64,000 nt of DNA, taken from IMG/VR virus record IMGVR_UViG_3300005573_000054, positions 32,001 through 96,000 of that record. One strand, 5' to 3'. The translations under genes were made by a program, and so were the position numbers. A model generated the notes under the pieces. The model saw nothing but the letters and a program-made list of their open reading frames with translations, ran no database searches and had not been told where the DNA came from. Positions 4,492 through 27,665 of this stretch are shown in pieces. Numbering within the stretch: the stretch's first letter is position 1; each line of letters opens with the position of its first letter. Source of the stretch: a virus.

Positions 4492-4500
4492 GAGGATGAA

Positions 4501-5656: not shown

Positions 5657-5676
5657 ACTGTGAGAAGTGACGTCTG

Positions 5677-5688
5677 GATATATATAAT
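5677..5688 (+). promoter_or_regulatory. Putative promoter element GATATATATAAT
   Basis: The identical 12-mer occurs at 60590-60601; both copies lie just 5' of a GC-rich structured element and contain TATAAT. Confidence 0.5.
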
Positions 5689-5698
5689 GATAGAAGTC

Positions 5699-5753
5699 CG
5701 GCTGGCCGGAGGAGGTAAAGGGGGCGCCTCCTCCGTGCCGATAACAAGCCCCC
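5699..5753 (+). promoter_or_regulatory. Putative H-type pseudoknot 5' leader
   Basis: Stem 5707-5716/5726-5735; 9-nt loop AAAGGGGGC whose GGGGGC complements GCCCCC 5748-5753; RBS follows. Confidence 0.55.
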
Positions 5754-5770
5754 ACAAGTGAGGAGAGGCC

Positions 5771-6070
5771 ATGGAAGGAAAAAAGAGGAGAATTGAACTC
5801 CGGGGGTTAAAGGCCACACTTTTAAGAAGCATTATTGACACCACTGGAGTCAAATTGACTCCAGTGGAAGAAACAGCATCCGACTGGCCCGTATTATCAG
5901 TTACCGGTGGTTACGTCGAGCTGCGTCCGGGAGCTGTCTTAAACTTAAAGAAACCAGCAGTAAGGATGAATTTATTCTACATACAGGGTCTGGGACCAGT
6001 AGATCTTGTCCCGGATACGCACGATCCCCTTAGGGCTAAAATCATCAGGCGTTGGAAATTTAGATTCTAA
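5771..6070 (+). CDS. Hypothetical protein (99 aa)
   Basis: GAGGAG RBS, flanked by a structured leader and a terminator. Confidence 0.7.
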   Translation: MEGKKRRIELRGLKATLLRSIIDTTGVKLTPVEETASDWPVLSVTGGYVELRPGAVLNLKKPAVRMNLFYIQGLGPVDLVPDTHDPLRAKIIRRWKFRF

Positions 6071-6091
6071 TTTCCGCGTCTGACCTCGCAC

Positions 6092-6127
6092 GCCCCTCCC
6101 GAGCCGGACGGGAGGGGCACTTTTTTT
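6092..6127 (+). terminator. Intrinsic terminator
   Basis: 10-bp GC stem GCCCCTCCCG/CGGGAGGGGC followed by T7. Confidence 0.85.
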
Positions 6128-6131
6128 AAAA

Positions 6132-6181
6132 ACCCTATAGAGTAGCGGGGGGATGCTCTATAGGGTAATGATAAACCCCTT
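6132..6181 (+). promoter_or_regulatory. Hairpin/pseudoknot leader of the MoxR operon
   Basis: 13-bp stem 6132-6144/6154-6166; 9-nt loop GCGGGGGGA complementary to CCCCTT 6176-6181. Confidence 0.5.
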
Positions 6182-6200
6182 AAACCAAAAGGAGGTTGTC

Positions 6201-7202
6201 ATGCTTATAGTAAAAGACTTGTTTCAAGTCCTCCAAGAAGTTCTCCAAGATGTAGACAAGCTTCTCATAAGTGGATCTCCAGGAATCGGCAAGTCAGAAA
6301 TTATCTATCAAGTGTGTAACAAGTTGAATCTCAAGGTATACGAAACAAGACTATATGAACAAGGGGAGTCGGCAGCAGGGCTCCCGAGAAGTCAAGACGG
6401 TATAACAAGATTTGACAAGCCATTCTGGCTAGATGAGCTGATCAAGGGTGGATATCAAGTTCTGTTTCTAGATGACTTCCATCTAGTCCCATCACAAGTA
6501 CAGCGTTTTCTTTACAAGCTCCTCACACACAAGGAACTTCACGATTACAAGGTACCCCAAGATCTCAAAGTGATTCTAGCAGGAAACTTCAAGATTGATT
6601 CTGCAGACTCAAGTGAAGTCCAGTCACCGATTATGTCAAGACTCCATCTAGCTATCGAATACGAGCCCGATCCAGAGGTATTCCTCAAGTTTGCAAGATC
6701 TCAACAAGACAGATTTGATTCAAGAGTCATTGCGTTTATTCAAGCAAATCCAGATTTGCTTTATACCAAGGAGCCTCCAACAAGTGAAATGTTCCCGTGT
6801 CCGAGGACATGGGAATACGCTTCAAGACTGCTGTCCAAGACTAATGATCCAAGGTTCCTTCTAGGTGTTGTAGGCACAAGAGCAGGATCAATCTTTCAAG
6901 AATTCTGGAATTTACTGAATCAAGATTTTAACACGATAGTCAAGACAGTGTCATATAAGTCAAGTATTAAAGATCAAGTTATAGCAAGCTTAATTTCTGC
7001 TCAAGAGTATTGTAAAGAACAAGATGTGTCAAGAAAGTCCAACATCTTCAAGTACGTTGAACAGTTCAAGGACGAGATCAAGTTCTTATTCGCAAGAAGG
7101 TGTTTTGAGGTCAAGGAGATGGAGTTCATACAAGAACTTAAAGTCAAGAGTCCAGATATATACAAGACTATCATAGAACTAGGTAAGGAGCTTACAAGAT
7201 GA
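6201..7202 (+). CDS. MoxR-like (AAA_5-type) AAA+ ATPase
   Basis: Walker A GSPGIGKS, Walker B LFLDD, ILAGN, SR arginine finger, CPRTWE; RBS AAAAGGAGG before ATG 6201. Confidence 0.9.
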   Translation: MLIVKDLFQVLQEVLQDVDKLLISGSPGIGKSEIIYQVCNKLNLKVYETRLYEQGESAAGLPRSQDGITRFDKPFWLDELIKGGYQVLFLDDFHLVPSQVQRFLYKLLTHKELHDYKVPQDLKVILAGNFKIDSADSSEVQSPIMSRLHLAIEYEPDPEVFLKFARSQQDRFDSRVIAFIQANPDLLYTKEPPTSEMFPCPRTWEYASRLLSKTNDPRFLLGVVGTRAGSIFQEFWNLLNQDFNTIVKTVSYKSSIKDQVIASLISAQEYCKEQDVSRKSNIFKYVEQFKDEIKFLFARRCFEVKEMEFIQELKVKSPDIYKTIIELGKELTR

Positions 7203-8479
7203 ATACAAGTACGCTTAGTGAAGACAAGTTGATAAGTGTACTCAAGGTACAGGCATTCAAGTACACTTCAATGAATAGAATTCTAGAATATGAAATCAAG
7301 TTGGAAGATCTGAAACAAGTGGCCCCGCAAATTGCGGGGTATATTGACGACAAGCACAAGATTGTTATTGACAAGAGTTTAACAAGGGATGAACAAGTAG
7401 CAGTATTAATACACGAGGCATTACACGATGTTCTAGATCACATCAAGAGAGGTATGCGTCTAGAAGTATTCAACCAGCAACGAGATCAAGCTTTATGGAA
7501 TCTAGCGACAGACTACGTGATTAACAAGATAATATTAAGTTTAAACCTCAAGAAACATCCAGAAATACTTAAGAATGTGATACAAGTAGTTGACAAGTTT
7601 AGACCTGATCCAGAAAGCGATACAAGCGCAGAAGCCTTGTATAGGCTTCTCAAGAACAAGACCGAAGTCCAAGTGGAGAAACTAGAAGTTCAAATTCCAG
7701 GACAGAATCAAGGTCAAGGAGAACCAGATTCAATCGAGATTGTCAAGACAAGCGTAATTAACAAGGAAACAGGAGAAGTATTACAAGAGTCAGTACAAGT
7801 CCTCATCAGCAAGGAAGAAGCACAAGAGAGAAGCGAAAATCAACAAGAGGGAAAACAAGTGGATATCTTCAAGCTTCAAGAAAGTTTGAAACAAGCGGGG
7901 AACTCGTCTTCCCAGATGCTTCAAGAAATCACAGCAGCAAAATCAAGACTTAGTCTCAAGAATGAGTTGTCAAGTTATTTCGACAACCTCAAAACTCAAG
8001 GTCTTGATATAAGTTTCTTCGCAAGATCACCAAGAAGTACCGTTATCTCCTCAAGTTGTGGGTATAATGTTCCAGCATACGTCAATCCAAGGACGAAGAT
8101 TCTAGTTGCAATTGATTCAAGTGGATCAATAAGCAACAAGGAGTACTCGGAGTTTCTAGGGGTTTTAAGGAGAAACCTCAAGTACATTTATGGAAAACTA
8201 GTGTTATTCGACACAGAAGCTCAAGTTTATGATTTAGATTCAAGAGCAGTAGAAACACTAGAAAGAAAAGGGACTTTCAAGAGGGTTTTCTGTGGAGGCA
8301 CAAGTTTACGAGAGACCTTTAAGATTATTGAACAAGAGAAATTCAAACTAGCAATTATCATGACGGATCTAGAAGTTACTATTCCAGAGAAACCTAAGAA
8401 GCTTTCCAAGGTGTTGTGGATCGTCCCGTCGATTGACGGGACAAAGTTGCCAAGTTATGGAAAGGTTATTCAAGTGTAA
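7199..8479 (+). CDS. HExxH metallopeptidase-like plus vWA domain protein (DUF2201-like), MoxR partner
   Basis: HEALH, WNLATDYVIN, MIDAS DSSGS, GGTS, MTD; ATGA overlap with the ATPase gene. Confidence 0.9.
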   Translation: MNTSTLSEDKLISVLKVQAFKYTSMNRILEYEIKLEDLKQVAPQIAGYIDDKHKIVIDKSLTRDEQVAVLIHEALHDVLDHIKRGMRLEVFNQQRDQALWNLATDYVINKIILSLNLKKHPEILKNVIQVVDKFRPDPESDTSAEALYRLLKNKTEVQVEKLEVQIPGQNQGQGEPDSIEIVKTSVINKETGEVLQESVQVLISKEEAQERSENQQEGKQVDIFKLQESLKQAGNSSSQMLQEITAAKSRLSLKNELSSYFDNLKTQGLDISFFARSPRSTVISSSCGYNVPAYVNPRTKILVAIDSSGSISNKEYSEFLGVLRRNLKYIYGKLVLFDTEAQVYDLDSRAVETLERKGTFKRVFCGGTSLRETFKIIEQEKFKLAIIMTDLEVTIPEKPKKLSKVLWIVPSIDGTKLPSYGKVIQV

Positions 8480-8506
8480 TAAGAAAATAAAGAAAGGAGG
8501 TAGGAA

Positions 8507-9748
8507 ATGAAAACGCCTACCTTCGAACAAGTAGTTGCTCAAGTACATGAAGGCAAGTTCTTTGAAGACAAGGAAATTCTTATGTTGAGAGACCAGTATG
8601 AAACAAGTATAGCTCACGAACAAGCTAGACAAGGTTGGACAACGAACGACAAGGAAATTCTCATGTTACAAGACAGAGTGGGGCGATCAGTCGCCCATAT
8701 TCAAGCAGAACGAGGTTGGACAACTGAAGACAAGGAAATTCTCGCGTTACAAGATGTAACAGGGCGAACAGTCGCCCACGAACAAGCTAGACAAGGTTGG
8801 ACAACCGAAGACAAGGAAATACTCGAGTTTGAAGATAATGGGAGACGAACAGTCGCCCATACTCAAGCAGAACGAGGTTGGATCACAGAAGACAAGAAGA
8901 TTCTCAAGCTTTACGACAGAAGTGGTACAAGTGTGGCTCACACTCAAGCTAGACAAGGATGGATTACTGAAGACAAGGAGATACTCGAGTTGAAAAACAC
9001 AAGCGGGTGGACAGTTGTCCACGAACAAGCAGAACAAGGGTGGACAACGGAAGACAAGGAGATGCTCAAGCTGAAGGATTACTATGGGCGATCAGTCGCC
9101 CATATTCAAGCTAAACGAGGGTGGACAACCGAAGACAAGGAAATACTCAAGTTGAAAGATAAGTATGGTACAAGTGTGGCTCATATTCAAGCAGAACGAG
9201 GCTGGATTATAGAAGACAAGGAAATACTCAAGTTAGAGAACAATCATGGTACAAGTGTGGCTCATATTCAAGCAGAACGAGGTTGGATAACAGAAGATCC
9301 AGAAATTCTCAAGCTTCACGATAAGAGTGGTACAAGTGTAGCTCATATTCAAGCAAAACAAGGATGGACTACTGAAGACAAGGAAATACTCAAGTTGAAA
9401 GATACAAGTGGGTGGAGTGTTGCCCACCAACAAGCAGATCAAGGATGGTCAACAGAAGACAAGGAAATCCTCAAGTTGGACAACGACCATGGTACAAGTG
9501 TAGCTCATATTCAAGCAGAACGAGGTTGGGTGTTTGAAGATCCAGAGATTCTAGTTTTGATCATTCGAGGCGGCTTGACGGTCGCCGAAGTTCAAGCACG
9601 TTATTCAGGTTGGACTCCAGGGGAAGAAGTCAAGGAAAAGTTCATACAAGAACTTCGGAAAAACTTTCCAGAAGAGAGAGTACAAGAAATACTTTACAAT
9701 GTTGATAATCTAGCGAAAGAATACTTCAAGAAAATCCTATCGAAATAG
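8507..9748 (+). CDS. 27-aa ankyrin-like repeat protein 1 (12 internal repeats)
   Basis: Repeat xDxxGx[TS]VAHxQAxxGWTTEDKEILKL with N-cap TFEQVVAQV.EGKFFED and a helical C-cap. Confidence 0.9.
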   Translation: MKTPTFEQVVAQVHEGKFFEDKEILMLRDQYETSIAHEQARQGWTTNDKEILMLQDRVGRSVAHIQAERGWTTEDKEILALQDVTGRTVAHEQARQGWTTEDKEILEFEDNGRRTVAHTQAERGWITEDKKILKLYDRSGTSVAHTQARQGWITEDKEILELKNTSGWTVVHEQAEQGWTTEDKEMLKLKDYYGRSVAHIQAKRGWTTEDKEILKLKDKYGTSVAHIQAERGWIIEDKEILKLENNHGTSVAHIQAERGWITEDPEILKLHDKSGTSVAHIQAKQGWTTEDKEILKLKDTSGWSVAHQQADQGWSTEDKEILKLDNDHGTSVAHIQAERGWVFEDPEILVLIIRGGLTVAEVQARYSGWTPGEEVKEKFIQELRKNFPEERVQEILYNVDNLAKEYFKKILSK

Positions 9749-9757
9749 GAGGTGAGA

Positions 9758-10273
9758 ATGAAAGTGTATACTTTCGAACAAGTAGTCGCTCAAGTGAATG
9801 AAGGCAAGTTCTTTGAAGATAAGGAAATCCTCAAGCTTTGCGACAAGAACGGGTGGACAGTCGCCCATGAACAAGCTTCTCAAGGCTGGACAACGGAAGA
9901 CAAGGAGATACTCAAGCTTTGTGATAAGAATGGTACAAGTGTGGCACATTTACAAGCGCTTCACAAGTGGACAACGAACGACAAGGAAATACTCAAGCTT
10001 TGTGACGAGTTCAAGGTGAGTGTTGCTCACGAACAAGCGTTTCGAGGATGGGTAACAGAAGATCCAGAAATTCTAGCTTTAGCTACCACAAGTAACTTCC
10101 TAGTAGCGAAAATTCAAGCATACTATTCGGGTTGGACTCCAGAAGGAGAAACTAGAGAAAAGTTTGTACAAGAACTTCAAAAGAATTTCCCAGTGGAGAA
10201 AGTACAAGAAATACTTTACGATATTGATGGTCTAGCAAAAGAGTATTTCAAGAAAATCTTATTCGGGAGGTAG
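9758..10273 (+). CDS. Repeat protein 2 (3 repeats)
   Basis: Same caps and repeat; RBS AGGAGGTG before ATG 9758. Confidence 0.9.
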   Translation: MKVYTFEQVVAQVNEGKFFEDKEILKLCDKNGWTVAHEQASQGWTTEDKEILKLCDKNGTSVAHLQALHKWTTNDKEILKLCDEFKVSVAHEQAFRGWVTEDPEILALATTSNFLVAKIQAYYSGWTPEGETREKFVQELQKNFPVEKVQEILYDIDGLAKEYFKKILFGR

Positions 10274-10276
10274 GAG

Positions 10277-11593
10277 ATGGAGATGTGTACTTTTAAGCAA
10301 GCAATTACTCAAGTAAATGAGGGTAAGTTCTTTGAAGACCCAGAAATCCTCAAGTTATATAATGTCTTCGGGCGGACAATCGCCCATGAACAAGCTTCTC
10401 AAGGCTGGATAACGGAAGACAAGGAGATACTCAAGTTAAAGGATGATCATGGTACAAGTGTAGCTCACGTTCAAGCAGAACATGGATGGACAACGGAAGA
10501 CAAGGAGATACTCAAGCTTCAAAATAACAGTGGGCTGACTGTTGCCCACAAACAAGCAGAACAAGGATGGACAACTGAAGATCCAGAGATTCTTAAGTTG
10601 TCCGACTGGTCAAGCTGGAGTGTTGCTCACACTCAAGCTAGACAAGGATGGACCACTGAAGACAAGGAGATACTCAAGTTACATAATATGTATGGGTGGG
10701 CGGTTGCCCACGAACAAGCTAAACAAGGTTGGATAACAGAAGACAAGGAAATTCTCAAGCTTCGCGACAAGAGTGGCACAAGCGTAGCTCATACACAAGC
10801 ATCTCGAGGATGGACTACAGAAGACAAGGAAATACTCATGTTACAAGACAGAATGGGGCGAACAGTCGCCCACGTTCAAGCAGATCAAGGTTGGACTACG
10901 GAAGACAAGGAAATTCTCAAGCTTCGCGACAAGAGTGGCACAAGCGTAGCTCATGTACAAGCATCTCGAGGATGGACAACGGAAGACAAGGAAATTCTCA
11001 TGTTGAAAGATAAGCATAATACAAGTGTAGCACATCTACAAGCAGAACGAGGATGGTCAACTGAAGACAAGGAGATACTCAAGTTAGAAGACGATCATGG
11101 TACAAGTGTTGCGTATAAACAAGCTAGACAAGGATGGATCACGAATGACGAGGAAATTCTCAAGCTTTGCGATGGGGGTGGCTGGTCCATCGCCCATAGA
11201 CAAGCTTCTCAAGGCTGGATAACTAATAACAAGGAGATACTCAAGTTGAAAGATAGATATGGTACAAGTGTAGCGCATTTACAAGCAGAACGAGGTTGGA
11301 CAACAGATGACAAGGAAATACTCAAGCTTCAAAATAACAGTGGGCTGACTGTTGCCCACAAACAAGCAGAACAAGGATGGACAACTGAAGATCCAGAGAT
11401 TCTTCTCCTCACGGAAAAACTAGGAGTCACTGTAGCCGAAGTTCAAGCAAGCTATTCAGGTTGGATATTAAGCGAAGACATTCAAGAAAAACTACGCCAA
11501 GAACCTTATAAGCTTAGTAAAGAGAAGCTTAACAAGTTAATATCATCAGTTAACGAAGCTTCAAGGCGATTCTTCAAGAATGCTCTAAAATAA
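10277..11593 (+). CDS. Repeat protein 3 (13 repeats)
   Basis: Same family; C-cap class SEDIQEKLRQEPY. Confidence 0.9.
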   Translation: MEMCTFKQAITQVNEGKFFEDPEILKLYNVFGRTIAHEQASQGWITEDKEILKLKDDHGTSVAHVQAEHGWTTEDKEILKLQNNSGLTVAHKQAEQGWTTEDPEILKLSDWSSWSVAHTQARQGWTTEDKEILKLHNMYGWAVAHEQAKQGWITEDKEILKLRDKSGTSVAHTQASRGWTTEDKEILMLQDRMGRTVAHVQADQGWTTEDKEILKLRDKSGTSVAHVQASRGWTTEDKEILMLKDKHNTSVAHLQAERGWSTEDKEILKLEDDHGTSVAYKQARQGWITNDEEILKLCDGGGWSIAHRQASQGWITNNKEILKLKDRYGTSVAHLQAERGWTTDDKEILKLQNNSGLTVAHKQAEQGWTTEDPEILLLTEKLGVTVAEVQASYSGWILSEDIQEKLRQEPYKLSKEKLNKLISSVNEASRRFFKNALK

Positions 11594-11607
11594 AAGGAGG
11601 TGGGAAA

Positions 11608-12366
11608 ATGGGAGTATGTGTCACTTTCGAACAAGTAGTCGCTCAAGTGAATGAAGGCAAGTTCTTCGAAGACCCAGAAATCCTCAAGCTTTATAACGAG
11701 AACGGGTGGAGTGTTGCCCATGAACAAGCGGATCAAGGATGGATAACGGAAGACAAGGAAATACTCAAATTAAAAAACAAGTATAACATAAGTGTAGCTT
11801 ATGTTCAAGCGTTCCGAGGATGGACAACAGAGGATCCAGAAATACTCAAGATTCAGGACAAGAACGGGTGGACTATCGCCCACGAACAAGCGGTTCGAGG
11901 ATGGACAACTGAAGACAAGGAAATACTTATGTTAAAAGATAAGTTTGGAACAAGTGTTGCCCATGAACAAGCGAAACAAGATTGGGTAACTGAAGACAAG
12001 GAAATACTTATGTTAAAAGACCAACACGGAACAAGTGTTGCTTATATTCAAGCTAGACGAGGATGGACAACTGAAGACAAGGAAATACTTAAACTAGAAG
12101 ACGATCAAGGTGTAACTGTAGCTCATGTTCAAGCAGAGCAAGGTTGGACGACAGAAGATCCAGAGATTCTAGTCTTGGCCACTTATGATGGCGTAACAGT
12201 GGCCGAAGTTCAAGCAGAACATTCAGGATGGGAGCTAGAAGGAGAGACCAGGGAAAGGTTTATTCAAGAGCTTCAAAAGAACTTTTCAAAGAGAAAAGCG
12301 CAAGAAGTACTTCACAATGTTGACAAGATGAGGAAAAAGTACTTCAAGGAAGCTCTGTTGGAATAA
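11608..12366 (+). CDS. Repeat protein 4 (6 repeats)
   Basis: Same family; RBS AAGGAGGTG. Confidence 0.9.
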   Translation: MGVCVTFEQVVAQVNEGKFFEDPEILKLYNENGWSVAHEQADQGWITEDKEILKLKNKYNISVAYVQAFRGWTTEDPEILKIQDKNGWTIAHEQAVRGWTTEDKEILMLKDKFGTSVAHEQAKQDWVTEDKEILMLKDQHGTSVAYIQARRGWTTEDKEILKLEDDQGVTVAHVQAEQGWTTEDPEILVLATYDGVTVAEVQAEHSGWELEGETRERFIQELQKNFSKRKAQEVLHNVDKMRKKYFKEALLE

Positions 12367-12370
12367 TAAG

Positions 12371-12460
12371 ATGAGACGAGACAATGTTCCAATATACAAT
12401 CAAGTAGTCACTCAAGTAAACAAGAAACACACAAGAGAAGATTTAATCTCAAGCCCTTAA
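12371..12460 (+). pseudogene. N-cap remnant of a repeat-protein gene
   Basis: MRRDNVPIYNQVVTQVNK resembles the N-cap MNRNDTLMYKQVIAQVNK of the 16674 paralog, then stops. Confidence 0.55.
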
Positions 12461-12484
12461 TTTTTCTGTTAAGAGGTAGAGAAC

Positions 12485-12919
12485 ATGAAAGCGTGTCTTT
12501 TTGAACAAGTAGTTGCTCAAGTAAATGAAGGTAAGTTTTTTGAAGACAAAGAGATACTCAAGCTTCACGACGAGGACGGACGAACAGTTGCCCACGTTCA
12601 AGCAGAACAAGGTTGGATTACAGAAGACAAGGAAATACTCAAGTTGAAAGATATAAGCGGGTGGACAGTTGCCCACCAACAAGTGGTTCGAAGATGGATA
12701 ACAGAAGACCCAGAGATTCTAGTTTTGGCTACCATAAGAAACATCCTAGTGGCAGAAGTTCAAGCATGTTATTCAGGTTGGACCCCAGAAGAGGAAACCA
12801 GGGAAAAGTTCGTGCAAGAACTTCGGAAGAATTTTCCAGAGGAGAAAGCACAAGAGATACTTCACAATGTTGATAGTCTAGCAAAAGAGTATTTCAAGAA
12901 AATCTTATTCGGGAGGTAG
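12485..12919 (+). CDS. Repeat protein 5 (2 repeats)
   Basis: Same family. Confidence 0.88.
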   Translation: MKACLFEQVVAQVNEGKFFEDKEILKLHDEDGRTVAHVQAEQGWITEDKEILKLKDISGWTVAHQQVVRRWITEDPEILVLATIRNILVAEVQACYSGWTPEEETREKFVQELRKNFPEEKAQEILHNVDSLAKEYFKKILFGR

Positions 12920-12922
12920 GAG

Positions 12923-13678
12923 ATGGAGATGTGTACTTTTAAGCAAGCAATTACTCAAGTAAATGAGGGTAAGTTCTTTGAAGATAAAGAGATACTCAAG
13001 CTTTGCAACGGGAACGGGTGGAGTGTTGCCCATGAACAAGCATTTCGAGGATGGACAACAGAAGACAAGGAAATCCTCATGTTGTATGATGATACTGGGT
13101 GGACTGTCGCCCATGAACAAGCTTCTCAAGGTTGGACAACAGAGGATCCAGAAATTCTCAAGTTTTGCGATGATGTTGGACAGACTGTCGCCCACGTTCA
13201 AGCATCTCGAGGATGGACAACCGAAGACAAGGAAATACTCAAGCTTCAAAATGACAGTGGGTGGACAGTCGCCCATGAACAAGCAAGCAGAAGATGGACA
13301 ACGAACGACGAGGAAATCCTCAAGTTAAAAGACAACCACGAGTGGACTGTTGCCCATATTCAAGCTAGACGAGGATGGATAACTGAAAACAAGGAAATAC
13401 TCAAGTTGAAAGACGATCGTGGTACAAGTGTAGCTTATGTTCAAGCATCTCAAGGATGGATAACAGAAGATCCAGAAATTCTAGTCTTGGCCACTCACGA
13501 TGACATAACAGTAGCCGAGGTTCAAGCTAAATACTCAGGATGGGAACCAGAAGGGGAAGTCAAGGAAAAGTTTGTGCAAGAACTCCAGAAAAACTTTTCA
13601 AAGAAGAAGATACAAGAAATACTTCAGGATATCAACGAGTTGAGGAAAAAGTATTTCGAGAGAATCTTATTAGTGTAA
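12923..13678 (+). CDS. Repeat protein 6 (6 repeats)
   Basis: Same family. Confidence 0.9.
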   Translation: MEMCTFKQAITQVNEGKFFEDKEILKLCNGNGWSVAHEQAFRGWTTEDKEILMLYDDTGWTVAHEQASQGWTTEDPEILKFCDDVGQTVAHVQASRGWTTEDKEILKLQNDSGWTVAHEQASRRWTTNDEEILKLKDNHEWTVAHIQARRGWITENKEILKLKDDRGTSVAYVQASQGWITEDPEILVLATHDDITVAEVQAKYSGWEPEGEVKEKFVQELQKNFSKKKIQEILQDINELRKKYFERILLV

Positions 13679-13817
13679 CGAGATAAATCAAGATAAACAA
13701 ACAAGAAATATCAAAGAAAGAACCATTATAATTGTTTAATAAGTTTTTTCGTGTTGAAGTTACAAGAAAATTTTTCCAAAAATATCTCAAAAAATCTTAT
13801 AGACGGGAGGTGAGGAA

Positions 13818-14810
13818 ATGGAAGCGTATACTTTTGAACAAGCAATCACTCAAGTGAATGAAGGTAAGTTTTTCGAAGACAAGGAGATACTTAAACTTCA
13901 CGATGAGAATGGGTGGACTGTTGCCCATGAACAAGCTAAACGAGGGTGGACAACTGAAGATAAGGAGATCCTCAAGCTTCACGATAAATCATGGCGAAGT
14001 GTAGCCCATGAACAAGCGAAACGAGGATGGACAACAAATAACAAGGAGATACTCATGTTACGTGACACTTTCAGATGGTCTGTTGCTCATATTCAAGCAG
14101 AACATGGGTGGACAACTGAAAATAGAGAGATTCTCAAGTTGTTCGACTGGTCCAACTGGACTGTCGCCCATGAACAAGCAAGACGAGGGTGGACAACTGA
14201 AGACAAGGAAATTCTTAGACTTTATAGCGACTATGGATATACTGTAGCTTATATCCAAGCAAAACATGGATGGATAACAAATGACAAAGAAATACTCAAA
14301 TCGAAAGATAAGTATGATACAAGTGTAGCGCATCTACAAGCAAAACATGGCTGGACCACCGAAGATAAGGAGATACTCAAGCTTTATGATAAGAATAAGT
14401 GGTCTGTTGCTCATGAACAGGCAAGACAAGGATGGACTACTGAAGATAAGGAAATCCTCAAGTTAGAAGACAATTGTGGTACAAGTGTCGCTCATATTCA
14501 GGCAGAACAAGGATGGACAACTAAAGATAAGGAGATACTCAAGTTGCATGATGTCTGTGGGTGGACAGTCGCCCATGAACAAGCTAAACGTGGTTGGATA
14601 ACTGAAGATCCAGAGATTCTTCTTTTCGCAGAAAGACTGGGAGTCACTGTTGCAGAAATTCAGGTAGAATATTCAGGCTGGACACTAAGCGAAGACATCC
14701 AAGAAAAACTACGGCAAGAACCTTACAGACTCAGTGAAGAGGAGTTTAACAAGTTAATGTCGTCAATCAACGAAGCTTCAAGACGGTTCTTCAAGAATAC
14801 TCTAAGATAG
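13818..14810 (+). CDS. Repeat protein 7 (9 repeats)
   Basis: Same family; RBS GGGAGGTG. Confidence 0.9.
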   Translation: MEAYTFEQAITQVNEGKFFEDKEILKLHDENGWTVAHEQAKRGWTTEDKEILKLHDKSWRSVAHEQAKRGWTTNNKEILMLRDTFRWSVAHIQAEHGWTTENREILKLFDWSNWTVAHEQARRGWTTEDKEILRLYSDYGYTVAYIQAKHGWITNDKEILKSKDKYDTSVAHLQAKHGWTTEDKEILKLYDKNKWSVAHEQARQGWTTEDKEILKLEDNCGTSVAHIQAEQGWTTKDKEILKLHDVCGWTVAHEQAKRGWITEDPEILLFAERLGVTVAEIQVEYSGWTLSEDIQEKLRQEPYRLSEEEFNKLMSSINEASRRFFKNTLR

Positions 14811-14824
14811 AAGGAGGCGGGAAA

Positions 14825-15817
14825 ATGGAAGCGTATACTTTCGAACAAGCAATCACTCAAGTGAATGAAGGCAAGTTCTTCGAAGATAAGGAGATACTCA
14901 AACTTCACAATAAGAATGGGTGGACTGTAGCCCATGAACAAGCGGAGCATGGTTGGACAACTGAAGACAAGGAGATACTTAGACTTTGCGACAAGAATGG
15001 GTGGACTGTGGCCCATGAGCAAGCTAGACGAGGGTGGACTACTGAAGACAAAGAGATACTCAAGTTGAGAGATCAGTACGGAGTAAGTGTCGCTCATATT
15101 CAAGCAGAACGAGGATGGACAACCGAAGACAAGGAGATACTCATGTTACGTAATATTTATGGGTGGACTGTTGCCCATGAGCAAGCTAGACAAGGGTGGA
15201 CAACTGAAGACCCAGAGATTCTTTTTCTCGTAGATAGACTAGAAATCACTGTAGCTGAAATACAAGCAAAACATGGATGGATGACAAATGATAAAGAAAT
15301 ACTCAAATTGAAAGATATGTACGGCACAAGTGTAGCACATTTTCAAGCAGAACATGGTTGGACTACAGAAGACAAGGAGATACTCAAGCTTTGTGATAAG
15401 AATAACTGGTTTGTTGCTCACGAACAAGCGAAACGAGGATGGACGACTGAAGACAAAGAGATACTCAAGTTAGATGACGATCAAGGTGTAAGTGTCGCTC
15501 ATATTCAAGCAGAACGAGGATGGACAACTGAAGACAAAGAGATACTCATGTTGCGTAATATCTATGGGTGGACTGTTGCCCATGAACAAGCTAGACAAGG
15601 GTGGACAACTGAAGATCCAGAGATTCTAGTCTTAGCCACTCGTGATAACTTAATGGTAGCCGAAGTTCAAGCAAGCTATTCAGGCTGGACACTAAGCGAA
15701 GACATTCAAGAAAAACTGCGACAAGAACCTTATAGACTTAGTGAAGAGGAGCTTAACAAGTTAATGTCGTCAATCAACGAAGCTTTAAGACGGTTCTTTA
15801 AGAATGTTCTAAGATAA
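14825..15817 (+). CDS. Repeat protein 8 (9 repeats, one being an internal terminal-type VAEIQA unit)
   Basis: Same family. Confidence 0.9.
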   Translation: MEAYTFEQAITQVNEGKFFEDKEILKLHNKNGWTVAHEQAEHGWTTEDKEILRLCDKNGWTVAHEQARRGWTTEDKEILKLRDQYGVSVAHIQAERGWTTEDKEILMLRNIYGWTVAHEQARQGWTTEDPEILFLVDRLEITVAEIQAKHGWMTNDKEILKLKDMYGTSVAHFQAEHGWTTEDKEILKLCDKNNWFVAHEQAKRGWTTEDKEILKLDDDQGVSVAHIQAERGWTTEDKEILMLRNIYGWTVAHEQARQGWTTEDPEILVLATRDNLMVAEVQASYSGWTLSEDIQEKLRQEPYRLSEEELNKLMSSINEALRRFFKNVLR

Positions 15818-15831
15818 AAGGAGGTGAGAAA

Positions 15832-16677
15832 ATGGAAACATATACTTTTGAACAAGCGATTGCCCAAGTGGATAAAGGTAAGTTTTTCGAAGACAAGGAG
15901 ATACTTAAACTTCACGACGAAAACGGGTGGACTGTTGCCCATAAACAAGCTAAGTATGGTTGGACAACTGAAAACAAGGAGATACTCAAGTTAAAGGATA
16001 ACCGTGGTATAAGTGTAGCCCATGAACAAGCTAAACGAGGGCGGACAACAGAAGACCCAGAGATTCTTAAGTTGTCCGACTGGTCCAGATGGACTGTTGC
16101 TCATATTCAAACAGAACATGGGTGGACAACTGAAGACAAGGAAATACTCAAGTTAAACGACAAATGGGAACGGGCTGTGGCCTACATTCAAGCTAGATAT
16201 GGATGGACTACAGAAGACAAGGAAATACTCAAGTTAAGAGACAACCATGGGCGGTCTGTTGCCCACGAACAAGCGGAGCTAGGATGGACAACGGAAGACA
16301 AGGAAATTCTCAAACTTTGTAACAAGAGCGGTACAAGCGTAGCACATTTACAAGCGGAACAAGGATGGACTACAGAAGACCCAGAAATCCTCAAGCTTTG
16401 CAATAAGTACGGTGTAAGTGTAGCTCATGAACAAGCTAAACGTGGTTGGATAACTGAAGATCCAGAGATCCTAGTTTTAGCCGCCACAGGAAACTTCCTA
16501 GTAGCAGAAGTTCAAGCAGAGTATTCAGGTTGGAAACCAGCGGAGGAAGTCGAGGAAAAGTTCGTGCGAGAACTTCAGAAGAATTTTCCAGAGGAGAAAG
16601 TACAAGAAATACTTCATAATATTGATGATCTAGCAAAAAATATTTCGAGAAAATCTTGTTTGGGAGGTAGGAGATGA
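15832..16677 (+). CDS. Repeat protein 9 (7 repeats; -1 frameshift in the last codons)
   Basis: Same family; the A-run at ~16635-16640 is one base short relative to paralog ends LAK.YF.KILFGR*. Confidence 0.88.
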   Translation: METYTFEQAIAQVDKGKFFEDKEILKLHDENGWTVAHKQAKYGWTTENKEILKLKDNRGISVAHEQAKRGRTTEDPEILKLSDWSRWTVAHIQTEHGWTTEDKEILKLNDKWERAVAYIQARYGWTTEDKEILKLRDNHGRSVAHEQAELGWTTEDKEILKLCNKSGTSVAHLQAEQGWTTEDPEILKLCNKYGVSVAHEQAKRGWITEDPEILVLAATGNFLVAEVQAEYSGWKPAEEVEEKFVRELQKNFPEEKVQEILHNIDDLAKNISRKSCLGGRR

Positions 16678-17834
16678 ATCGAAACGACACTCTAATGTAT
16701 AAACAAGTAATTGCTCAAGTAAATAAGGGTAAGCTCTTCGAAGACAAGGAGATACTCAAGCTTTGTGATAAGTACGGTACAAGTGTAGCTCACGTTCAGA
16801 CAGAACGAGGGTGGACAACCGAAGATAAGGAAATTCTTACACTTCATAAAAAGTCTGGATGGACTGTTGCCCATCAACAGGCAGAACGTGGATGGACAAC
16901 AAATAACAAGGAGATACTCAAGCTTTGCAACAAAAGCGGTATAAGTGTAGCTCACGTTCAAGCTAAACATGGGTGGACAACTGAAGACAAGGAAATACTC
17001 AAGCTTCATGATGACTTTGGGCGGACTGTAGCTCATGAACAAGCTAAACAAGGATGGACCACTGAAGACAAAGAAATACTCGAACTTTGTGATGTCACTG
17101 GATGGACTGTAGCTCATGAACAAGCTAAACAAGGATGGACTACTGAAGACAAAGAAATACTCGAACTTTGTGATGATTCTGTATGGACTGTAGCTCATGA
17201 ACAAGCTAAACAAGGATGGACTACTGAAGACAAGGAAATACTCGAACTTTGTAATGACGATGGATGGTTTGTTGCCCATGAACAAGCTAAACATGGGTGG
17301 ACAACTGAAGACAAGGAAATACTCAAGCTTCATGATGACTCTGGATGGACTGTAGCTCATGAACAAGCTAAACAAGGATGGACTACTGAAGACAAGGAGA
17401 TACTTAAACTATGTAACAACCCTGGATGGACTGTAGCTCATGAACAAGCTAAACAAGGATGGACTACTGAAGACAAGGAGATACTCAAGTTAAGAAACCA
17501 GTATGATCGGACTGTTGCTCATGAACAAGCTTCTCACGGATGGACGATAGAAAACAAGAAAATACTTAAGTTGAAAGATAAACATGGTACAAGTGTAGCA
17601 CATTTACAGGCAGAGCAAGGATGGACAACAGAAGATCCAGAAATCCTTTTACTCACAGATAAATCAGGGACTACCGTCGCAGAAATTCAAGCAAGGCGTT
17701 CAGGTTGGTTACCAAGTGAAGACACTCAAGAAAAGATACGGCAAGAGCTCTGTAAATCTGCGGTAAGGAGGTTCAACAGTTTAATAACAGCTGCTTCGAA
17801 AAAGTTTTTCCAACAGACTCTGAAAGGAGAGTAA
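16674..17834 (+). CDS. Repeat protein 10 (11 repeats)
   Basis: Same family; central units homogenised to WTVAHEQAKQGW. Confidence 0.9.
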   Translation: MNRNDTLMYKQVIAQVNKGKLFEDKEILKLCDKYGTSVAHVQTERGWTTEDKEILTLHKKSGWTVAHQQAERGWTTNNKEILKLCNKSGISVAHVQAKHGWTTEDKEILKLHDDFGRTVAHEQAKQGWTTEDKEILELCDVTGWTVAHEQAKQGWTTEDKEILELCDDSVWTVAHEQAKQGWTTEDKEILELCNDDGWFVAHEQAKHGWTTEDKEILKLHDDSGWTVAHEQAKQGWTTEDKEILKLCNNPGWTVAHEQAKQGWTTEDKEILKLRNQYDRTVAHEQASHGWTIENKKILKLKDKHGTSVAHLQAEQGWTTEDPEILLLTDKSGTTVAEIQARRSGWLPSEDTQEKIRQELCKSAVRRFNSLITAASKKFFQQTLKGE

Positions 17835-17867
17835 TATAGAAACCACAACCTAAATGAGGTAAAGAAA

Positions 17868-18461
17868 ATGAAAGTATTTACTTTTAAGCAAGCGGTTGCC
17901 CAAGTAACTAAAGGTAAGTTCTTTGAAGATAAAAAAATCCTCAAGCTTCACGACAAGAACGGGTGGACTGTTGCCCATGAACAAGCGAAGCGAGGATGGA
18001 CCACCGAAGACAAGGAAATACTCAAGCTTTGTGATAAGTACGGAGTGAGTGTAGCCTATGAACAAGCGAGACATGGCTGGACCACTGAAGACAAGGAAAT
18101 TCTCAAGCTTTGCAACAAAAGCGGTACAAGTGTAGCTCATATACAAGCGAGATATGGCTGGACTACTGAAGATAAGGAGATACTCAAGCTTCGTAATAAG
18201 TACGGTACAAGTGTAGCACACGAACAAGCGTACCGAGGATGGGTAACAGAAGACCCTGAGATTCTAGTTTTAACTACCATAAGTAACTTCCTAGTAGCAA
18301 AAGTTCAAGCATGTTATTCAGGTTGGACTCCTGAAGGGGAAACCAGAGAAAAGTTCGTACAAGAACTCCAAAAGAATTTCCCAGTGGAGAAAGTACAAGA
18401 AATACTTTACGATATTGATGATCTAGCAAAAAAGTATTTCAAGAAAATTTTGTTAGAATAG
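17868..18461 (+). CDS. Repeat protein 11 (4 repeats)
   Basis: Same family; C-cap nearly identical to that of protein 2. Confidence 0.9.
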   Translation: MKVFTFKQAVAQVTKGKFFEDKKILKLHDKNGWTVAHEQAKRGWTTEDKEILKLCDKYGVSVAYEQARHGWTTEDKEILKLCNKSGTSVAHIQARYGWTTEDKEILKLRNKYGTSVAHEQAYRGWVTEDPEILVLTTISNFLVAKVQACYSGWTPEGETREKFVQELQKNFPVEKVQEILYDIDDLAKKYFKKILLE

Positions 18462-18472
18462 GAGGTGAGAAA

Positions 18473-19384
18473 GTGGAGTCGTATACTTTTGAACAAGCGT
18501 TTATTCAAGTACTTAGTGGCAAATTTTTCCAGGACAAAGAAATACTTAAATTATATAACGAAGATGGACGGACTATTGCTCATGAACAAGTAAGACAAGG
18601 ATGGAGAACAGAAGATAAAGAGATACTCAATTTATATGACAAAGATAGATGGACTGTTGCCCATCAACAGGCAGAACGTGGATGGACAACAAATAACAAG
18701 GAGATACTCAAGCTTTGTGATAAGTACGGTACAAGTGTAGCTCACGTTCAAGCAGAACACAGATGGACTACTGAAGACAAGGAAATACTCAGGCTTTGCA
18801 ACGACTCTGGACGAACAGTCGCTCATATTCAAGCATCTCATGGATGGACTACAGAAGACCTAGAAATCCTCAAGCTTTGTGGTAATCTTGAATGGACTGT
18901 CGCTCATGAACAAGCAAAACAAGGATGGACAACAGAAGATCCAGAAATCCTCAAGCTTTGCGACAAGAACGGGTGGACTGTGGCTCATGAACAAGCACGC
19001 CAAGGATGGACTACTGAAGACAAGGAGATACTCAAACTTCGCGACAAGACCGGGTGGACTGTTGCTCACGAACAAGCAGATCGAGGTTGGACAACAGATG
19101 ACAAGGAGATACTCAAGTTATGTAATATCTTTGGTCGGTTTATCGCTCATGTACAAGCGCTTCGAGGATGGACCACAGAGGATCCAGAGATTCTAGTCTT
19201 GGCCGCTTTTAACAACTTAACAGTAGCAGAAGTTCAAGCAGAACATTCAGGATGGGAACCGGAAGGAGAAGTCAAGGAAAAGTTCGTACAAGAACTTCAG
19301 GAGAACTTTCCTAAGGAAATAGTACAAGAAATACTCTGTAACATTGATAAGTTGAGGAAAAAGTATTTCAAGAGAATCTTATAA
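18473..19384 (+). CDS. Repeat protein 12 (8 repeats), GTG start
   Basis: Same family; RBS AGGAGGTG. Confidence 0.9.
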   Translation: MESYTFEQAFIQVLSGKFFQDKEILKLYNEDGRTIAHEQVRQGWRTEDKEILNLYDKDRWTVAHQQAERGWTTNNKEILKLCDKYGTSVAHVQAEHRWTTEDKEILRLCNDSGRTVAHIQASHGWTTEDLEILKLCGNLEWTVAHEQAKQGWTTEDPEILKLCDKNGWTVAHEQARQGWTTEDKEILKLRDKTGWTVAHEQADRGWTTDDKEILKLCNIFGRFIAHVQALRGWTTEDPEILVLAAFNNLTVAEVQAEHSGWEPEGEVKEKFVQELQENFPKEIVQEILCNIDKLRKKYFKRIL

Positions 19385-19399
19385 ACGGGAGGTGAGAAA

Positions 19400-19588
19400 A
19401 TGGAAACATATATTTTTAAGGAAGTAATCATTCAGGCAAAACGCTCAGGATGGATGTTGAATGAAGATATTCAAGAAAAACTACAACAAGAACCTTGTAA
19501 ATTTAACGAAGAAAGATATAATAAATTAGTATTATCAACTAATAAAGCTTCAAGACAATTCTTCCAAAATATCCTAAAAAAAGAGTAA
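19400..19588 (+). CDS. Repeat protein 13: N-cap fused directly to C-cap (zero repeats)
   Basis: METYIFKEVIIQ joined to AKRSGWMLNEDIQEKLQQEP...; intact RBS GGGAGGTG. Confidence 0.75.
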   Translation: METYIFKEVIIQAKRSGWMLNEDIQEKLQQEPCKFNEERYNKLVLSTNKASRQFFQNILKKE

Positions 19589-19593: not shown

Positions 19594-20472
19594 ATGAATA
19601 TAAGAAACTATAATCTAAGCGACGAAGAAATTCTAGAATTACCTATTGAGAAACAACGTCTAGTTGCGTATGCCCAAGTTCAACGTGGGTGGACCACAGA
19701 AAACAAAACAATCCTCCAACTCTCTTTATACTGGGGACGAACAATAGCTCATGAACAAGCCAGACAAGGATGGACAACAGAAGATAAAGAAATACTTACA
19801 ACAGTAGATATTTTTGGAGAATATGTAGCTCATATTCAAGCGCAGAATGGCTGGGTTACGGAAGATCCAGAGATTCTTAAACTTGCTAACAAAGAAAAAC
19901 AAACAGTTGCTCATATTCAAGCAGAACAAGGATGGACAACAAATAACAAGGAAATTCTCAAACTTTGTAACTCTAGAAAATGGACTGTTGCCCATATTCA
20001 AGCTAGACGAGGATGGACAACTGAAGACATAGAAATCCTCAAGTTAACTAACAAGCTTGGTCAGTCCGTCGCTTTTTTCCAGGCAATGAATGGATGGACT
20101 ACAGAGAATCTAGAAATACTCAAACTTCACGATAAAAATGGGTGGACTGTTGCCCATGAACAAGCTAGACGTGGATGGACTACAGAAAATTTCAAGATTC
20201 TTAAACTAGCTGACAAAAATGGATGGACTGTTGCTCATGAACAAGCTAAGCGTGGATGGATTACAAGAGATTTAAGAGTTCTTACTATCAAAGATATGAG
20301 AAACAATACAGTAGCTGAAATACAAGCAAAACACTCTGGATGGACTCCTGATGATGAACTCGAGAAGAAGTTACTTCAAAAGCTTCGAAAACGTTCTGTA
20401 GAAGAAGCATCAAGAGTGTTGAAATCAATAAACGATTTATCTCTAGAGTTTTTTAGAAACGCCTTTAGATAG
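19594..20472 (+). CDS. Repeat protein 14 (divergent caps)
   Basis: Same 27-aa repeat. Confidence 0.88.
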   Translation: MNIRNYNLSDEEILELPIEKQRLVAYAQVQRGWTTENKTILQLSLYWGRTIAHEQARQGWTTEDKEILTTVDIFGEYVAHIQAQNGWVTEDPEILKLANKEKQTVAHIQAEQGWTTNNKEILKLCNSRKWTVAHIQARRGWTTEDIEILKLTNKLGQSVAFFQAMNGWTTENLEILKLHDKNGWTVAHEQARRGWTTENFKILKLADKNGWTVAHEQAKRGWITRDLRVLTIKDMRNNTVAEIQAKHSGWTPDDELEKKLLQKLRKRSVEEASRVLKSINDLSLEFFRNAFR

Positions 20473-20486
20473 TAAGGAGGTATAAA

Positions 20487-21335
20487 ATGGATGAAGATCG
20501 GTCTCAAATTCAAATTATGGAAAAGAAGTATCCTAAAAAGAAACTTCTAGAAATTGTTGATGAGACTCTGAAGAAAACTCTTGCACATGAGTTAGCCATC
20601 CAAGGAATGATTACAACTTCAAGAAAGATTTTACTTACCGCTGATAGAAATGGGAGAACTGTTGCCCATTATCAAGCTCTCTCTGGATATGTAGTTACAG
20701 AATCAGATATTTTAAAACTTGCTGATCTATGTGGAACGACGGTTGCACATCTACAGGCAAGTAAGGGATGGACTACAAAATCAAAAAAGATCTTAAAACT
20801 AGCTGATATAGATGGATGGTCAGTAGCTCATGAAATAGCTAGCAAAGGACACTTTTTTCCAGAAACTCAAAAGGAAGTTTTAAAAATCAGCGATATAAGC
20901 GGGTGGACTGTTGCCCATGAACAGGCAAGTAGAGGATGGATAACAAACGACAAGGAAATCCTCAGTCTTTCTACTCTTAGGGGATGGACTGTTGCTCATG
21001 AACAAGCAAAACATAAATGGACCACAGAAGATCCAGAGATACTAATGTTGAGAGATAAAGAGAAGTGGTCTGTGGCACATGAGCAAGCGTATCAAGGATG
21101 GACTACAAATGATATTAATATCCTTAAAATACGTGATGCTCTTGGAGTGTGTGTGTCTATGGTTCAGATCGAAGTTTCTGGGTGGATTTATCCTTCCAGT
21201 TTGGAAGAAAAGTTTTCCCGAGATTGTTTGTCTCTTATGAAGAAGATTTACACCAAAAAGGGTATTAATATGTTCCCGGAGGAGGAAAAAGATGGAAAGG
21301 AAGTTAAAACCAAGACAAGTAGTTTGCTCTTGTAA
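20487..21335 (+). CDS. Repeat protein 15 (most divergent in the array)
   Basis: GWTVAHEQA-type repeats, different termini. Confidence 0.85.
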   Translation: MDEDRSQIQIMEKKYPKKKLLEIVDETLKKTLAHELAIQGMITTSRKILLTADRNGRTVAHYQALSGYVVTESDILKLADLCGTTVAHLQASKGWTTKSKKILKLADIDGWSVAHEIASKGHFFPETQKEVLKISDISGWTVAHEQASRGWITNDKEILSLSTLRGWTVAHEQAKHKWTTEDPEILMLRDKEKWSVAHEQAYQGWTTNDINILKIRDALGVCVSMVQIEVSGWIYPSSLEEKFSRDCLSLMKKIYTKKGINMFPEEEKDGKEVKTKTSSLLL

Positions 21336-26757: not shown

Positions 26758-26780
26758 AACTAAAAAACAGAGGCCATTTG

Positions 26781-27665
26781 ATGAACGTTGAAGTAAAGTT
26801 TAGAAGGGAAAATCCAGTTTTTCGAGCTAGTTACAAGAGTAATAATCAAGGAAAGAAACGCTTGACTATACAAGAGATTCTATCAAGGATCCAAAAACAG
26901 GAATTCTTTGAAGACGAAGAGTATCTGAAGGTAAGATTCAAAGGAAAAGGTGGATGGACTGTCGCTCATGAACAAGCTAGACGGCATTGGAAACCTGAAA
27001 ATTCTCTTCCAAAACACATTCTTGAAATGAGAACACAGTCTGGATGGACAGTGGCTCATCAGATGGCTCGAGCAGGACTTTTTACAAACGACAAGGAAGT
27101 TCTTCTACTTCGTGATAAAAGCAATAATACAGTTGCTCATGTACAAGCTGGTCGTGGGTGGATTACAGAAGATCCAGAGATTCTCAGACTTGCTGATAAG
27201 AGTGGATGGACTGTTGCCCATGAGCAAGTAGAACAAGGATGGATAACAGAAAACAAGGAGGTACTCAAGTTACGTGATAAGTATGGATGGACCGTCGCCC
27301 ATAGACAAGCAAGGTATGGGTGGACGACAAATGACAAAGAGATACTCAGATTATATAACGAGGATGGATGGACTGTCGCTCATGAACAAGTTAGACGGGG
27401 ATGGATAACTGAAGACAAGGAGGTGCTCATGTTGCGTGATATCTATGGTTGGACTGTAGCTCATGAACAAGCAAAATTTGGATGGGTAACTGGAGATAAA
27501 GAAATTCTTAGACTGTCTGATAATACCGGATGGACTGTTGCTCACGTCCAGGCGGAGTCTGGGTGGATGACAGATGACTCTGAGATACTAAATCTTTCCG
27601 ACAAGGACGGAACTACTGTCTCTGAAGTTATAGATAGATTTGTCGCAAAGACGCTATCGTTTTGA
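26781..27665 (+). CDS. Repeat protein 16 (orphan copy outside the array)
   Basis: GWTVAHEQ..GWITEDKE repeats, FFED N-cap. Confidence 0.88.
   Translation: MNVEVKFRRENPVFRASYKSNNQGKKRLTIQEILSRIQKQEFFEDEEYLKVRFKGKGGWTVAHEQARRHWKPENSLPKHILEMRTQSGWTVAHQMARAGLFTNDKEVLLLRDKSNNTVAHVQAGRGWITEDPEILRLADKSGWTVAHEQVEQGWITENKEVLKLRDKYGWTVAHRQARYGWTTNDKEILRLYNEDGWTVAHEQVRRGWITEDKEVLMLRDIYGWTVAHEQAKFGWVTGDKEILRLSDNTGWTVAHVQAESGWMTDDSEILNLSDKDGTTVSEVIDRFVAKTLSF

Follow-up and report, generated by a model that had tools for sequence, protein, structure and literature searches.

The tetranucleotide CAAG, mostly preceded by T or A (WCAAG), saturates the sense strand of an operon in an uncultured phage, where it forms a second code written over ordinary protein-coding sequence. 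The window analysed here is a DNA stretch of 64,000 nucleotides (nt), bases 32001-96000 of a 159,483-base IMG/VR virus record (IMGVR_UViG_3300005573_000054) with an estimated completeness of about 50%; coordinates refer to the window unless given as genome positions. The record represents a contractile-tailed jumbo-type phage, whose relatives and homologues come from hydrothermal (vent) samples. Between 6201 and 19560, a program count gives 478 CAAG and 10 copies of the reverse complement CTTG. Codons in this block are chosen according to their neighbours, synonymous sites within the motif are protected (93% vs 67% identity), and the amino-acid sequence is bent towards the motif, in agreement with the original prediction, made from the letters of this DNA, of a nucleotide-level code overlying the genes.

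The use of the motif is expressed as the realised fraction, i.e. the number of CAAG used divided by all places where the protein sequence would allow CAAG synonymously. The motif-rich operon comprises the following genes:
6201..7202, + strand: MoxR-type AAA+ ATPase gene; 52 CAAG, 0 CTTG, 81% of the possible sites realised.
7199..8479, + strand: DUF2201 metallopeptidase/vWA-like gene (vWA); 55 CAAG, 2 CTTG, 73% of the possible sites realised.
8507..19384, + strand: twelve tandem paralogous genes with repeats of 27 amino acids (aa; DUF4116/ankyrin-like); 26-46 CAAG per kb.
19594..21335, + strand: the last two, more diverged paralogues, in which the code fades (realised 0.43, then 0.30).

The hand counts of the original prediction (28 CAAG and 1 CTTG in 7201-7800; 8 CAAG and 4 CTTG in 1-600) proved exact, and its density of about one CAAG per 20 bp in MoxR matches the 52 copies in this gene of ~1 kb, one per 19 nt. 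The onset at the MoxR start codon and the subsequent fading were likewise recovered, with 53 CAAG per kb at the beginning and 13 per kb by 21.3 kb. CTAG, CGAG, and CCAG, described as common variants, are raised to 30, 24, and 23 copies, vs expectations of 8.5, 12, and 10 based on the remaining genome. In MoxR and vWA, CAAG is the top 4-mer, 7.6-fold over the rest of the genome. Outside the rich units, the 159-kb record contains about 5 CAAG per kb; in 2-kb windows taken genome-wide, the background amounts to ~10 CAAG and ~9 CTTG, and the block to 52-92 CAAG and 0-4 CTTG. The rest of the genome is thus not enriched, so that an equal excess everywhere, named beforehand as the outcome that would speak against a special code, was not observed.

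A second CAAG-rich unit extends from genome position 157568 to the contig end (159483+) and contains genes for a Ycf46/SpoVK-like AAA ATPase and a 122-aa protein as well as the start of a third gene. Outside both units, the two orientations are near parity (24.9 CAAG vs 18.7 CTTG per 4.2 kb). The phage genome does not terminate at the contig end (genome positions 159354-159483); the assembly breaks there at a segment exchanged recently, as the 130-nt stretch is identical in a co-occurring phage. The ends of contigs L168 and L169 fall in that stretch too, giving three contigs from two different phages.

Codon usage does not account for the motif. Four non-repetitive block genes use 165 of their 221 possible sites (75%), vs 106 of 562 (19%) in six large control genes, and by realised fraction CAAG ranks first among all 256 4-mers. 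Over the 147 open reading frames (ORFs) of the record, the fraction is bimodal, with a background of 0.05-0.30 and values of 0.54-0.81 in the two units; structural genes stay at baseline (sheath 0.28). The highest densities are found in the non-repetitive MoxR, vWA, AAA ATPase, and 122-aa ORF (realised 0.67-0.81). Permuting synonymous codons within genes leaves both the protein sequence and the codon usage of the genes unchanged; under this control, 89.3 CAAG are expected in the four non-repetitive genes instead of 165 (z=15.4), a mean of 30.1 instead of 52 in MoxR (z=7.8), and a mean of 30.7 instead of 55 in vWA (z=8.8). The excess hence outlasts the very shuffles that had been proposed as able to abolish it. 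The motif also falls in all three codon phases, as stated earlier (17/15/20 in MoxR; 19/14/22 for the 55 copies in vWA). With the excess over shuffles, the equal phases, and the richest genes being non-repetitive, the earlier view that neither codon bias nor repeat expansion explains the motif is borne out. A by-product of tandem repeat expansion was rejected on the same grounds, the non-repetitive genes being densest and homologues of the repeat proteins on the megaplasmid pDF308 using only 0.15 of their sites.

Codon choice depends on context with p from 1e-5 to 1e-23. In 64 of 84 cases the codon preceding AAG ends in C; for codons that precede another A-starting triplet, the number is 56 of 263. 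Where a G follows, Gln takes the codon CAA in 56 of 58 cases, elsewhere in 8 of 17, while Ser, Thr, Pro, and Ala use NCA before Ser or Arg in 46 of 58 cases, vs 83 of 228 otherwise. No such preference is seen for Glu (GAA) and Lys (AAA) when G follows. A general avoidance of T|A junctions or a dinucleotide bias was therefore dismissed, since C-ending codons are favoured before AAG only and GAA and AAA lack a matching effect. Words with three letters of the motif (CAAA, CAAT, AAAG, TAAG, GAAG) occur at or below background, so the selected unit is the tetranucleotide CAAG itself. Among related words, CTAG is enriched over the shuffles (z=5.1), and CGAG and CCAG mildly so. CTTG (6 vs 13.5 expected, z=-2.7) and CTCG (3 vs 10, z=-2.8) are depleted beyond codon usage; CTTG uses 4% of its possible sites in the block vs 16% in controls, and CTTC, GTTG, and ATTG are not depleted.

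The motif also shapes the proteins. In MoxR, Gln is followed by Gly, Ala, Val, Asp, or Glu in 17 of 21 cases (6 expected), and each of the 27 Lys residues is preceded by a residue for which a C-ending codon is available. Dipeptides compatible with the motif, i.e. possible sites, number 63 in MoxR and 64 in the relative of 87% identity (P0002), vs 30-46 in 14 orthologues of 38-52% identity. The amino-acid sequence is thus bent towards CAAG.

Comparison with the motif-bearing relatives L003 and L004 (87% amino-acid and 84-86% nucleotide identity; 91 CAAG in 1.8 kb; realised 0.81 and 0.78), demonstrates conservation of the individual sites. Aligned CAAG sites are conserved in 79 of 91 cases and CTAG sites in 11 of 12. 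Identity at third codon positions amounts to 92.9% within CAAG (n=127) and to 67.3% elsewhere (n=449; p=5e-10). The third-position identity to L003 lies at 0.88-0.97 at motif positions -1 to +3 and drops abruptly beyond, the flanking positions mostly showing 0.47-0.72 with single values up to 0.83. T or A occupies position -1 in 84% of CAAG sites; together with the protection of positions -1 to +3, this defines WCAAG as the core. The synonymous sites of the motif are under purifying selection. A diversity-generating retroelement or another form of targeted hypermutation was rejected, as the motif positions are conserved rather than variable and a search for reverse transcriptase gave no RVT_1 match in the available half of the genome. 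Contig L172, near-identical to the window, differs at seven positions over 7.8 kb, six of which cluster in 15 nt of MoxR (6492-6506); to judge from the sequence, this cluster looks like a small recombination patch.

The borders of the CAAG-rich region are those of a transcription unit. The features upstream of MoxR, and one ORF outside the array, are:
5676..5688, + strand: promoter-like element GGATATATATAAT, of the GATATATATAAT type, one of five in the 159-kb record.
5771..6070, + strand: 99-aa ORF between the promoter-like element and the terminator, conserved in L003 and L172; 0 CAAG.
6092..6127, + strand: strong intrinsic terminator (10-bp stem with 9 GC pairs, run of seven T), the 5' border of the unit.
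6133..6165, + strand: inverted repeat CCCTATAGAG...CTCTATAGGG, conserved and situated in the leader, which lacks CAAG.
6190-6195, + strand: ribosome-binding site AGGAGG, 3' of the leader inverted repeat.
26778..27665, + strand: 295-aa ORF outside the array; realised 0.49, with weak matches below the cut-off only (DUF7417, DUF6301).

The 99-aa ORF lacks the motif, so the code does not start there; the onset, the MoxR start codon, lies ~75 nt 3' of the T-run of the terminator, beyond the conserved hairpin leader. In the leaders and ribosome-binding spacers, 192 nt in total, CAAG is absent, vs an expectation of 7.7 copies (p=5e-4). No further terminator was detected on the + strand 3' of 6092-6127 before 23308. 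The realised fraction declines from 5' to 3' along the operon (0.81 to 0.30), dropping from 0.78 to 0.54-0.64 along the twelve repeat genes. The 295-aa ORF may be an orphan paralogue of the repeat genes, since its weak DUF6301 match is common to the repeat gene at 19594-20472. The GATATATATAAT elements lie at genome positions 37679, 92592, 98484, 157402, and 157494 (the first two being 5679 and 60592 of the window). One of them is located 75 nt upstream of the second CAAG-rich operon, and both rich units thus lie just downstream of such an element. The copy at 60592 precedes a GC-rich structured-RNA candidate at 60596-60795. In contig L169, from a related phage, a noncoding segment (4080-4270) with dense ACTAGT/TCTAG words beside TATATA runs resembles the promoter-like elements of the window phage.

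The sites are spaced more evenly than expected by chance. The coefficient of variation of the gaps is 0.55, only 7.5% of the gaps are shorter than 10 nt (29% expected, p=5e-8), and of the 31 possible sites left unused, 19 have a used site at a distance below 10 nt. CAAG sites cover every ~20-nt window of the block. A seeming periodicity of 6.7-6.8 nt does not reach significance once the number of periods tried is corrected for (p=0.05).

Several further features surround the operon. At its 3' end, a very basic 105-aa protein (21292-21609) carries two CxxC...CxxC zinc-ribbon-like motifs and has no family match; it is a possible nucleic-acid binder. On the minus strand (22649-23115), a segment without long ORFs contains three copies of one hairpin (CTGCGGAGTTTTGCGG with a T-rich tail after it) at intervals of ~210-240 nt. 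Just 3' of the operon, a noncoding array (23340-24550) consists of dozens of 15-23-nt GCTATATAAGCTGCT-like units and holds 71-nt super-repeats of 97% identity; from its layout, it looks like iterons/an origin or a dense array of binding sites. The + strand carries 144 of the 147 ORFs of the record. Besides the tail sheath, the phage encodes a family-B DNA polymerase with a fused uracil-DNA-glycosylase domain, pieces of a multisubunit RNA polymerase, and an anaerobic ribonucleotide reductase. A shared structured RNA was considered and dropped, since Rfam searches of the window and of 4400-6300 gave no match and no tRNAs were found.

Saturation with CAAG is a lineage-specific trait. The comparison with MoxR homologues suggested in the original prediction gave a realised fraction of 0.81 in L003 (87% identity to the window phage) and of 0.08-0.26 at 42-49% identity (L088, 49% identity, 0.26; L005, 47%, 0.20; L007, 42%, 0.08). 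For the second ATPase, the fraction is 0.67 in the window phage, 0.38 in L169 (77% identity), and 0.17 in L170 (75%). A general property of MoxR genes was rejected, since the mean over 107 other phage loci is 0.25, vs 0.21 for the flanking DNA, and none of them exceeds 0.53. The original prediction had spoken of an accessory block; a recent acquisition of MoxR-vWA is contradicted, however, by its presence at the same place in the motif-free relatives L007 and L005, so that the code is a newer addition to old genes. An origin of the block from a donor rich in CAAG was rejected because of this synteny and of the graded values of the second-ATPase orthologues, both of which indicate that the trait evolved in place. 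A second pair of a MoxR-like ATPase and a DUF2201 vWA protein, encoded outside the window at genome 14279-16588 (L171 2279-4585), is 27% and 25% identical to the first pair and shows intermediate CAAG use (0.50 and 0.27).

Relatives were also scanned for other saturating words. None was found in the related ~150-kb records G001 and G002, and a strong CTGG peak in L039 was rejected as it equals a collagen-like repeat. L005 (ENA ERZ27262656 k141_24322) contains 90 CTAG, a normally rare word, in 6.7 kb (z ~3-5 over shuffles); they are equally dense in intergenic DNA, occupy phases 0 and 1 in genes, and five of them align with CAAG sites of the window. The 27-aa repeat family has at least 39 matching places on pDF308 (L173, 130771-135776 and elsewhere), a 308-kb megaplasmid of the cultured vent thermophile Deferribacter desulfuricans, without CAAG saturation, which gives a hint at the host group.

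The readings considered here include the three candidates of the original prediction, namely an RNA-binding protein or RNase, a polar DNA signal, and a base-modification target. Among the possible readings, we tentatively favour, with a confidence that stays below one half, that WCAAG represents footprint-spaced binding sites on mRNA. The motif, in its degenerate form W-C-N-A-G (A far commoner than T, and T than G or C, at the variable position), would be a sense-strand recognition element present in hundreds of copies per operon. We infer a reader that would act on RNA rather than DNA and would be a protein, i.e. a sequence-specific single-strand-binding factor that leaves a footprint of ~10-20 nt on the transcript or on its DNA equivalent, the displaced non-template strand. 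It would decorate the whole coding part of the MoxR-vWA-repeat operon and the Ycf46-like AAA ATPase operon, and more weakly the second MoxR-vWA pair. Binding might set these long messages apart from all other phage and host RNA, e.g. to shield them from termination or 5'-to-3' decay or to time their use. RNA is favoured as the target because the borders are those of transcription units, initiation regions are excluded, the sense strand is specifically marked, the spacing is footprint-like, and the density follows a 5'-to-3' gradient. Many copies at footprint-limited spacing on one transcript are what is found for clustered single-strand RNA-binding sites. CsrB/RsmZ with ~20 GGA motifs and the YCAY clusters of Nova are known examples of protein sponges or clustered short binding sites, in which more copies mean more binding. 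They resemble WCAAG in carrying many single-strand motifs of 3-5 nt, ~10-20 nt apart and limited by the footprint. In contrast, those RNAs are noncoding or intronic, with tens of sites often placed in hairpin loops, whereas the WCAAG block has ~480 sites running through coding sequence in three phases and without a predicted structural context.

A number of observations weigh against binding to mRNA. Predicted folding of the mRNA in 120-nt windows yields mean energies no different from those of the synonymous shuffles (MoxR -22.0 vs -21.5; ATPase -25.7 vs -24.7), a result that also led to the rejection of selection for unstructured mRNA, and the predicted unpaired probability is 0.26 at CAAG vs 0.22 overall, no clear difference. 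No candidate for a reader or cognate binding protein was identified. The depletion of CTTG and CTCG (z ~-2.7) has no obvious reason under an RNA reader, and the enrichment of L005 in the palindrome CTAG, which includes its intergenic DNA, looks more like a DNA-level phenomenon. Finally, the CAAG-free leaders could simply reflect other constraints acting there.

Some of these points would be accommodated if the motif were read on DNA, with WCAAG/CTTGW serving as a strand-specific modification or nicking target or as an oriented signal of a polar tract. Examples would be the insertion of a 7-deazaguanine at the G of the motif, or a tract that guides a DNA translocase, a replication fork, or a nuclease. 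Such a signal is possible, if on the whole unlikely; it comes nearly as likely as the RNA reading because of the avoidance of the inverse words, the CNAG degeneracy, the palindromic CTAG of a relative, and the deazaguanine pathway. The reverse complements CTTG and CTCG are avoided, so the orientation purity of 478 to 10 is itself selected; CNAG is degenerate in the manner of short asymmetric methyltransferase-type sites; and the iteron-like array at 23340-24550, a possible origin, lies just 3' of the operon. The phage furthermore encodes the 7-deazaguanine precursor enzymes GTP cyclohydrolase I (FolE), a QueE-like protein, and a QueC fused to a glutamine amidotransferase (Gat-QueC), and a FolE/QueE/QueC-type gene set accompanies 7-deazaguanine DNA in other phages (PMC7544227, PMC10484667). 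The motif is, however, missing from leaders and ribosome-binding regions, its borders coincide with those of transcription units, and its confinement to two or three operons has no clear reason under a DNA signal. Searches of the 159 kb for TGT/DpdA-like, N6_N4_Mtase, and N6_Mtase domains gave no match, with about half of the genome missing from the record.

Known DNA-level systems differ from the motif as well. Phages with DpdA encode the precursor pathway as this phage does, and WCAAG ends in G, often followed by A, which recalls the DpdA motifs GA and GGC in CAjan and GA in iggy (PMC7544227, PMC10484667). These motifs, however, comprise 2-3 nt and occur genome-wide without local enrichment, and DpdA itself was not detected in the half of the genome that the record covers. 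Chi, KOPS/SRS, and uptake sequences are, like WCAAG, strand-specific words selected inside coding DNA for which orientation matters. They are 5-12 nt long and replication-oriented, occurring genome-wide at about one per 1-5 kb, whereas WCAAG has a core of 4-5 nt, recurs once per 20 nt, is limited to two or three operons, and stops at transcription-unit borders. The orientation purity typical of such words is present here; a genome-wide skew along the replication direction or a chromosome arm is not, given the parity outside the two units. The sites of the Type III enzyme EcoP15I in phage T7 are likewise short, asymmetric, and present in nearly one orientation only, but they are not enriched and their bias is genome-wide, whereas CAAG is enriched 7-fold locally. 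Since both orientations of CAAG are equally common elsewhere in the genome, the genome would not escape a Type III-like enzyme.

The remaining readings, a nuclease target or decoy, a mutational signature, and a translational effect, fit less well than binding to RNA or a signal on DNA. It is improbable that CAAG marks cleavage or binding sites of an endoribonuclease, either for rapid destruction of the message as a temporal shut-off or as a decoy for a host toxin RNase; in the mirror version, antisense or guide RNAs, which would carry CUUG every ~20 nt while the sense RNA has almost none, would be removed by a nuclease specific for this word. Strand specificity, confinement to transcription units, a site in every ~20-nt window, and the specific depletion of sense-strand CTTG would suit such an enzyme, and phage RNA decoys of toxin RNases are known in principle (ToxI mimicry, phage TE). 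A shut-off, on the other hand, needs one or a few sites, so that saturation and per-site conservation are unexpected; cleavage of the message would defeat the expression of conserved proteins; and no nuclease candidate was identified.

A somewhat more speculative idea, held at a slightly lower probability still, regards WCAAG as a strand-marking device, i.e. a gene-scale 'self' label written through protein-coding sequence. With WCAAG at every ~20 nt of the sense strand and its complement almost never, any complementary nucleic acid carries CUUGW/CTTGW. This partner could be an antisense RNA, a CRISPR/Argonaute guide, or the template DNA strand, and a dedicated phage factor would read one word in order to coat and protect the sense molecule or to destroy or block its pairing partner.

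The motif is very unlikely to be a functionless signature of transcription-coupled mutation, in which a strand-biased mutator acts on the exposed non-template strand and CAAG is the refractory end-state. Strand specificity, limitation to transcription units, and decay from the 5' end are hallmarks of transcription-associated mutagenesis, and all three are present here. Such a process does not predict the even spacing and the deficit of gaps below 10 nt, a conserved five-base core with unconstrained flanks, or a coordinated choice across two adjacent codons. The proteins, moreover, are conserved and yet steered towards motif-compatible dipeptides, and no reverse transcriptase was found; deaminases were not searched for. 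Least credible of all and largely refuted is translational optimisation (codon or codon-pair bias) or a by-product of the repeat family or base composition: the block does prefer AAG for Lys, CAA for Gln, and NCA codons, and MoxR genes of many phages lie slightly above their neighbours in CAAG use, but the three phases are equally used, the excess stands over shuffles that preserve the codon usage of the genes themselves, non-repetitive genes also account for two-thirds of the surplus over the genome background, structural genes and the pDF308 homologues stay low, and the remaining CAAN and NAAG words lie at background or are depleted.

Exonic splicing enhancers of eukaryotes come close in concept, as a code for RNA-binding proteins that constrains synonymous sites and amino-acid choice; they belong to a splicing context, consist of diverse hexamers, and have a far lower density, so the likeness is an analogy only. 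Known overlapping codes thus differ from WCAAG in scale, density, or distribution, and no published counterpart of an operon-wide word on the coding strand was found in full-text literature searches. If the interpretation holds, a tetra- or pentanucleotide code is overlaid on kilobases of ordinary coding sequence, fixes ~80% of the synonymous opportunities, alters which amino acids follow each other, and marks particular phage operons for a putative reader. It would provide a natural example of extreme multi-layer coding and would caution against the assumption that synonymous sites are neutral. The repeat homologues on pDF308 of D. desulfuricans offer a possible experimental handle. The strand-marking idea, if true, would be a hitherto undescribed kind of regulation or immune evasion. 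More generally, the vent jumbo phages would possess a new trans-acting system, be it an RNA coat, a strand-specific DNA modification, or a polar signal.

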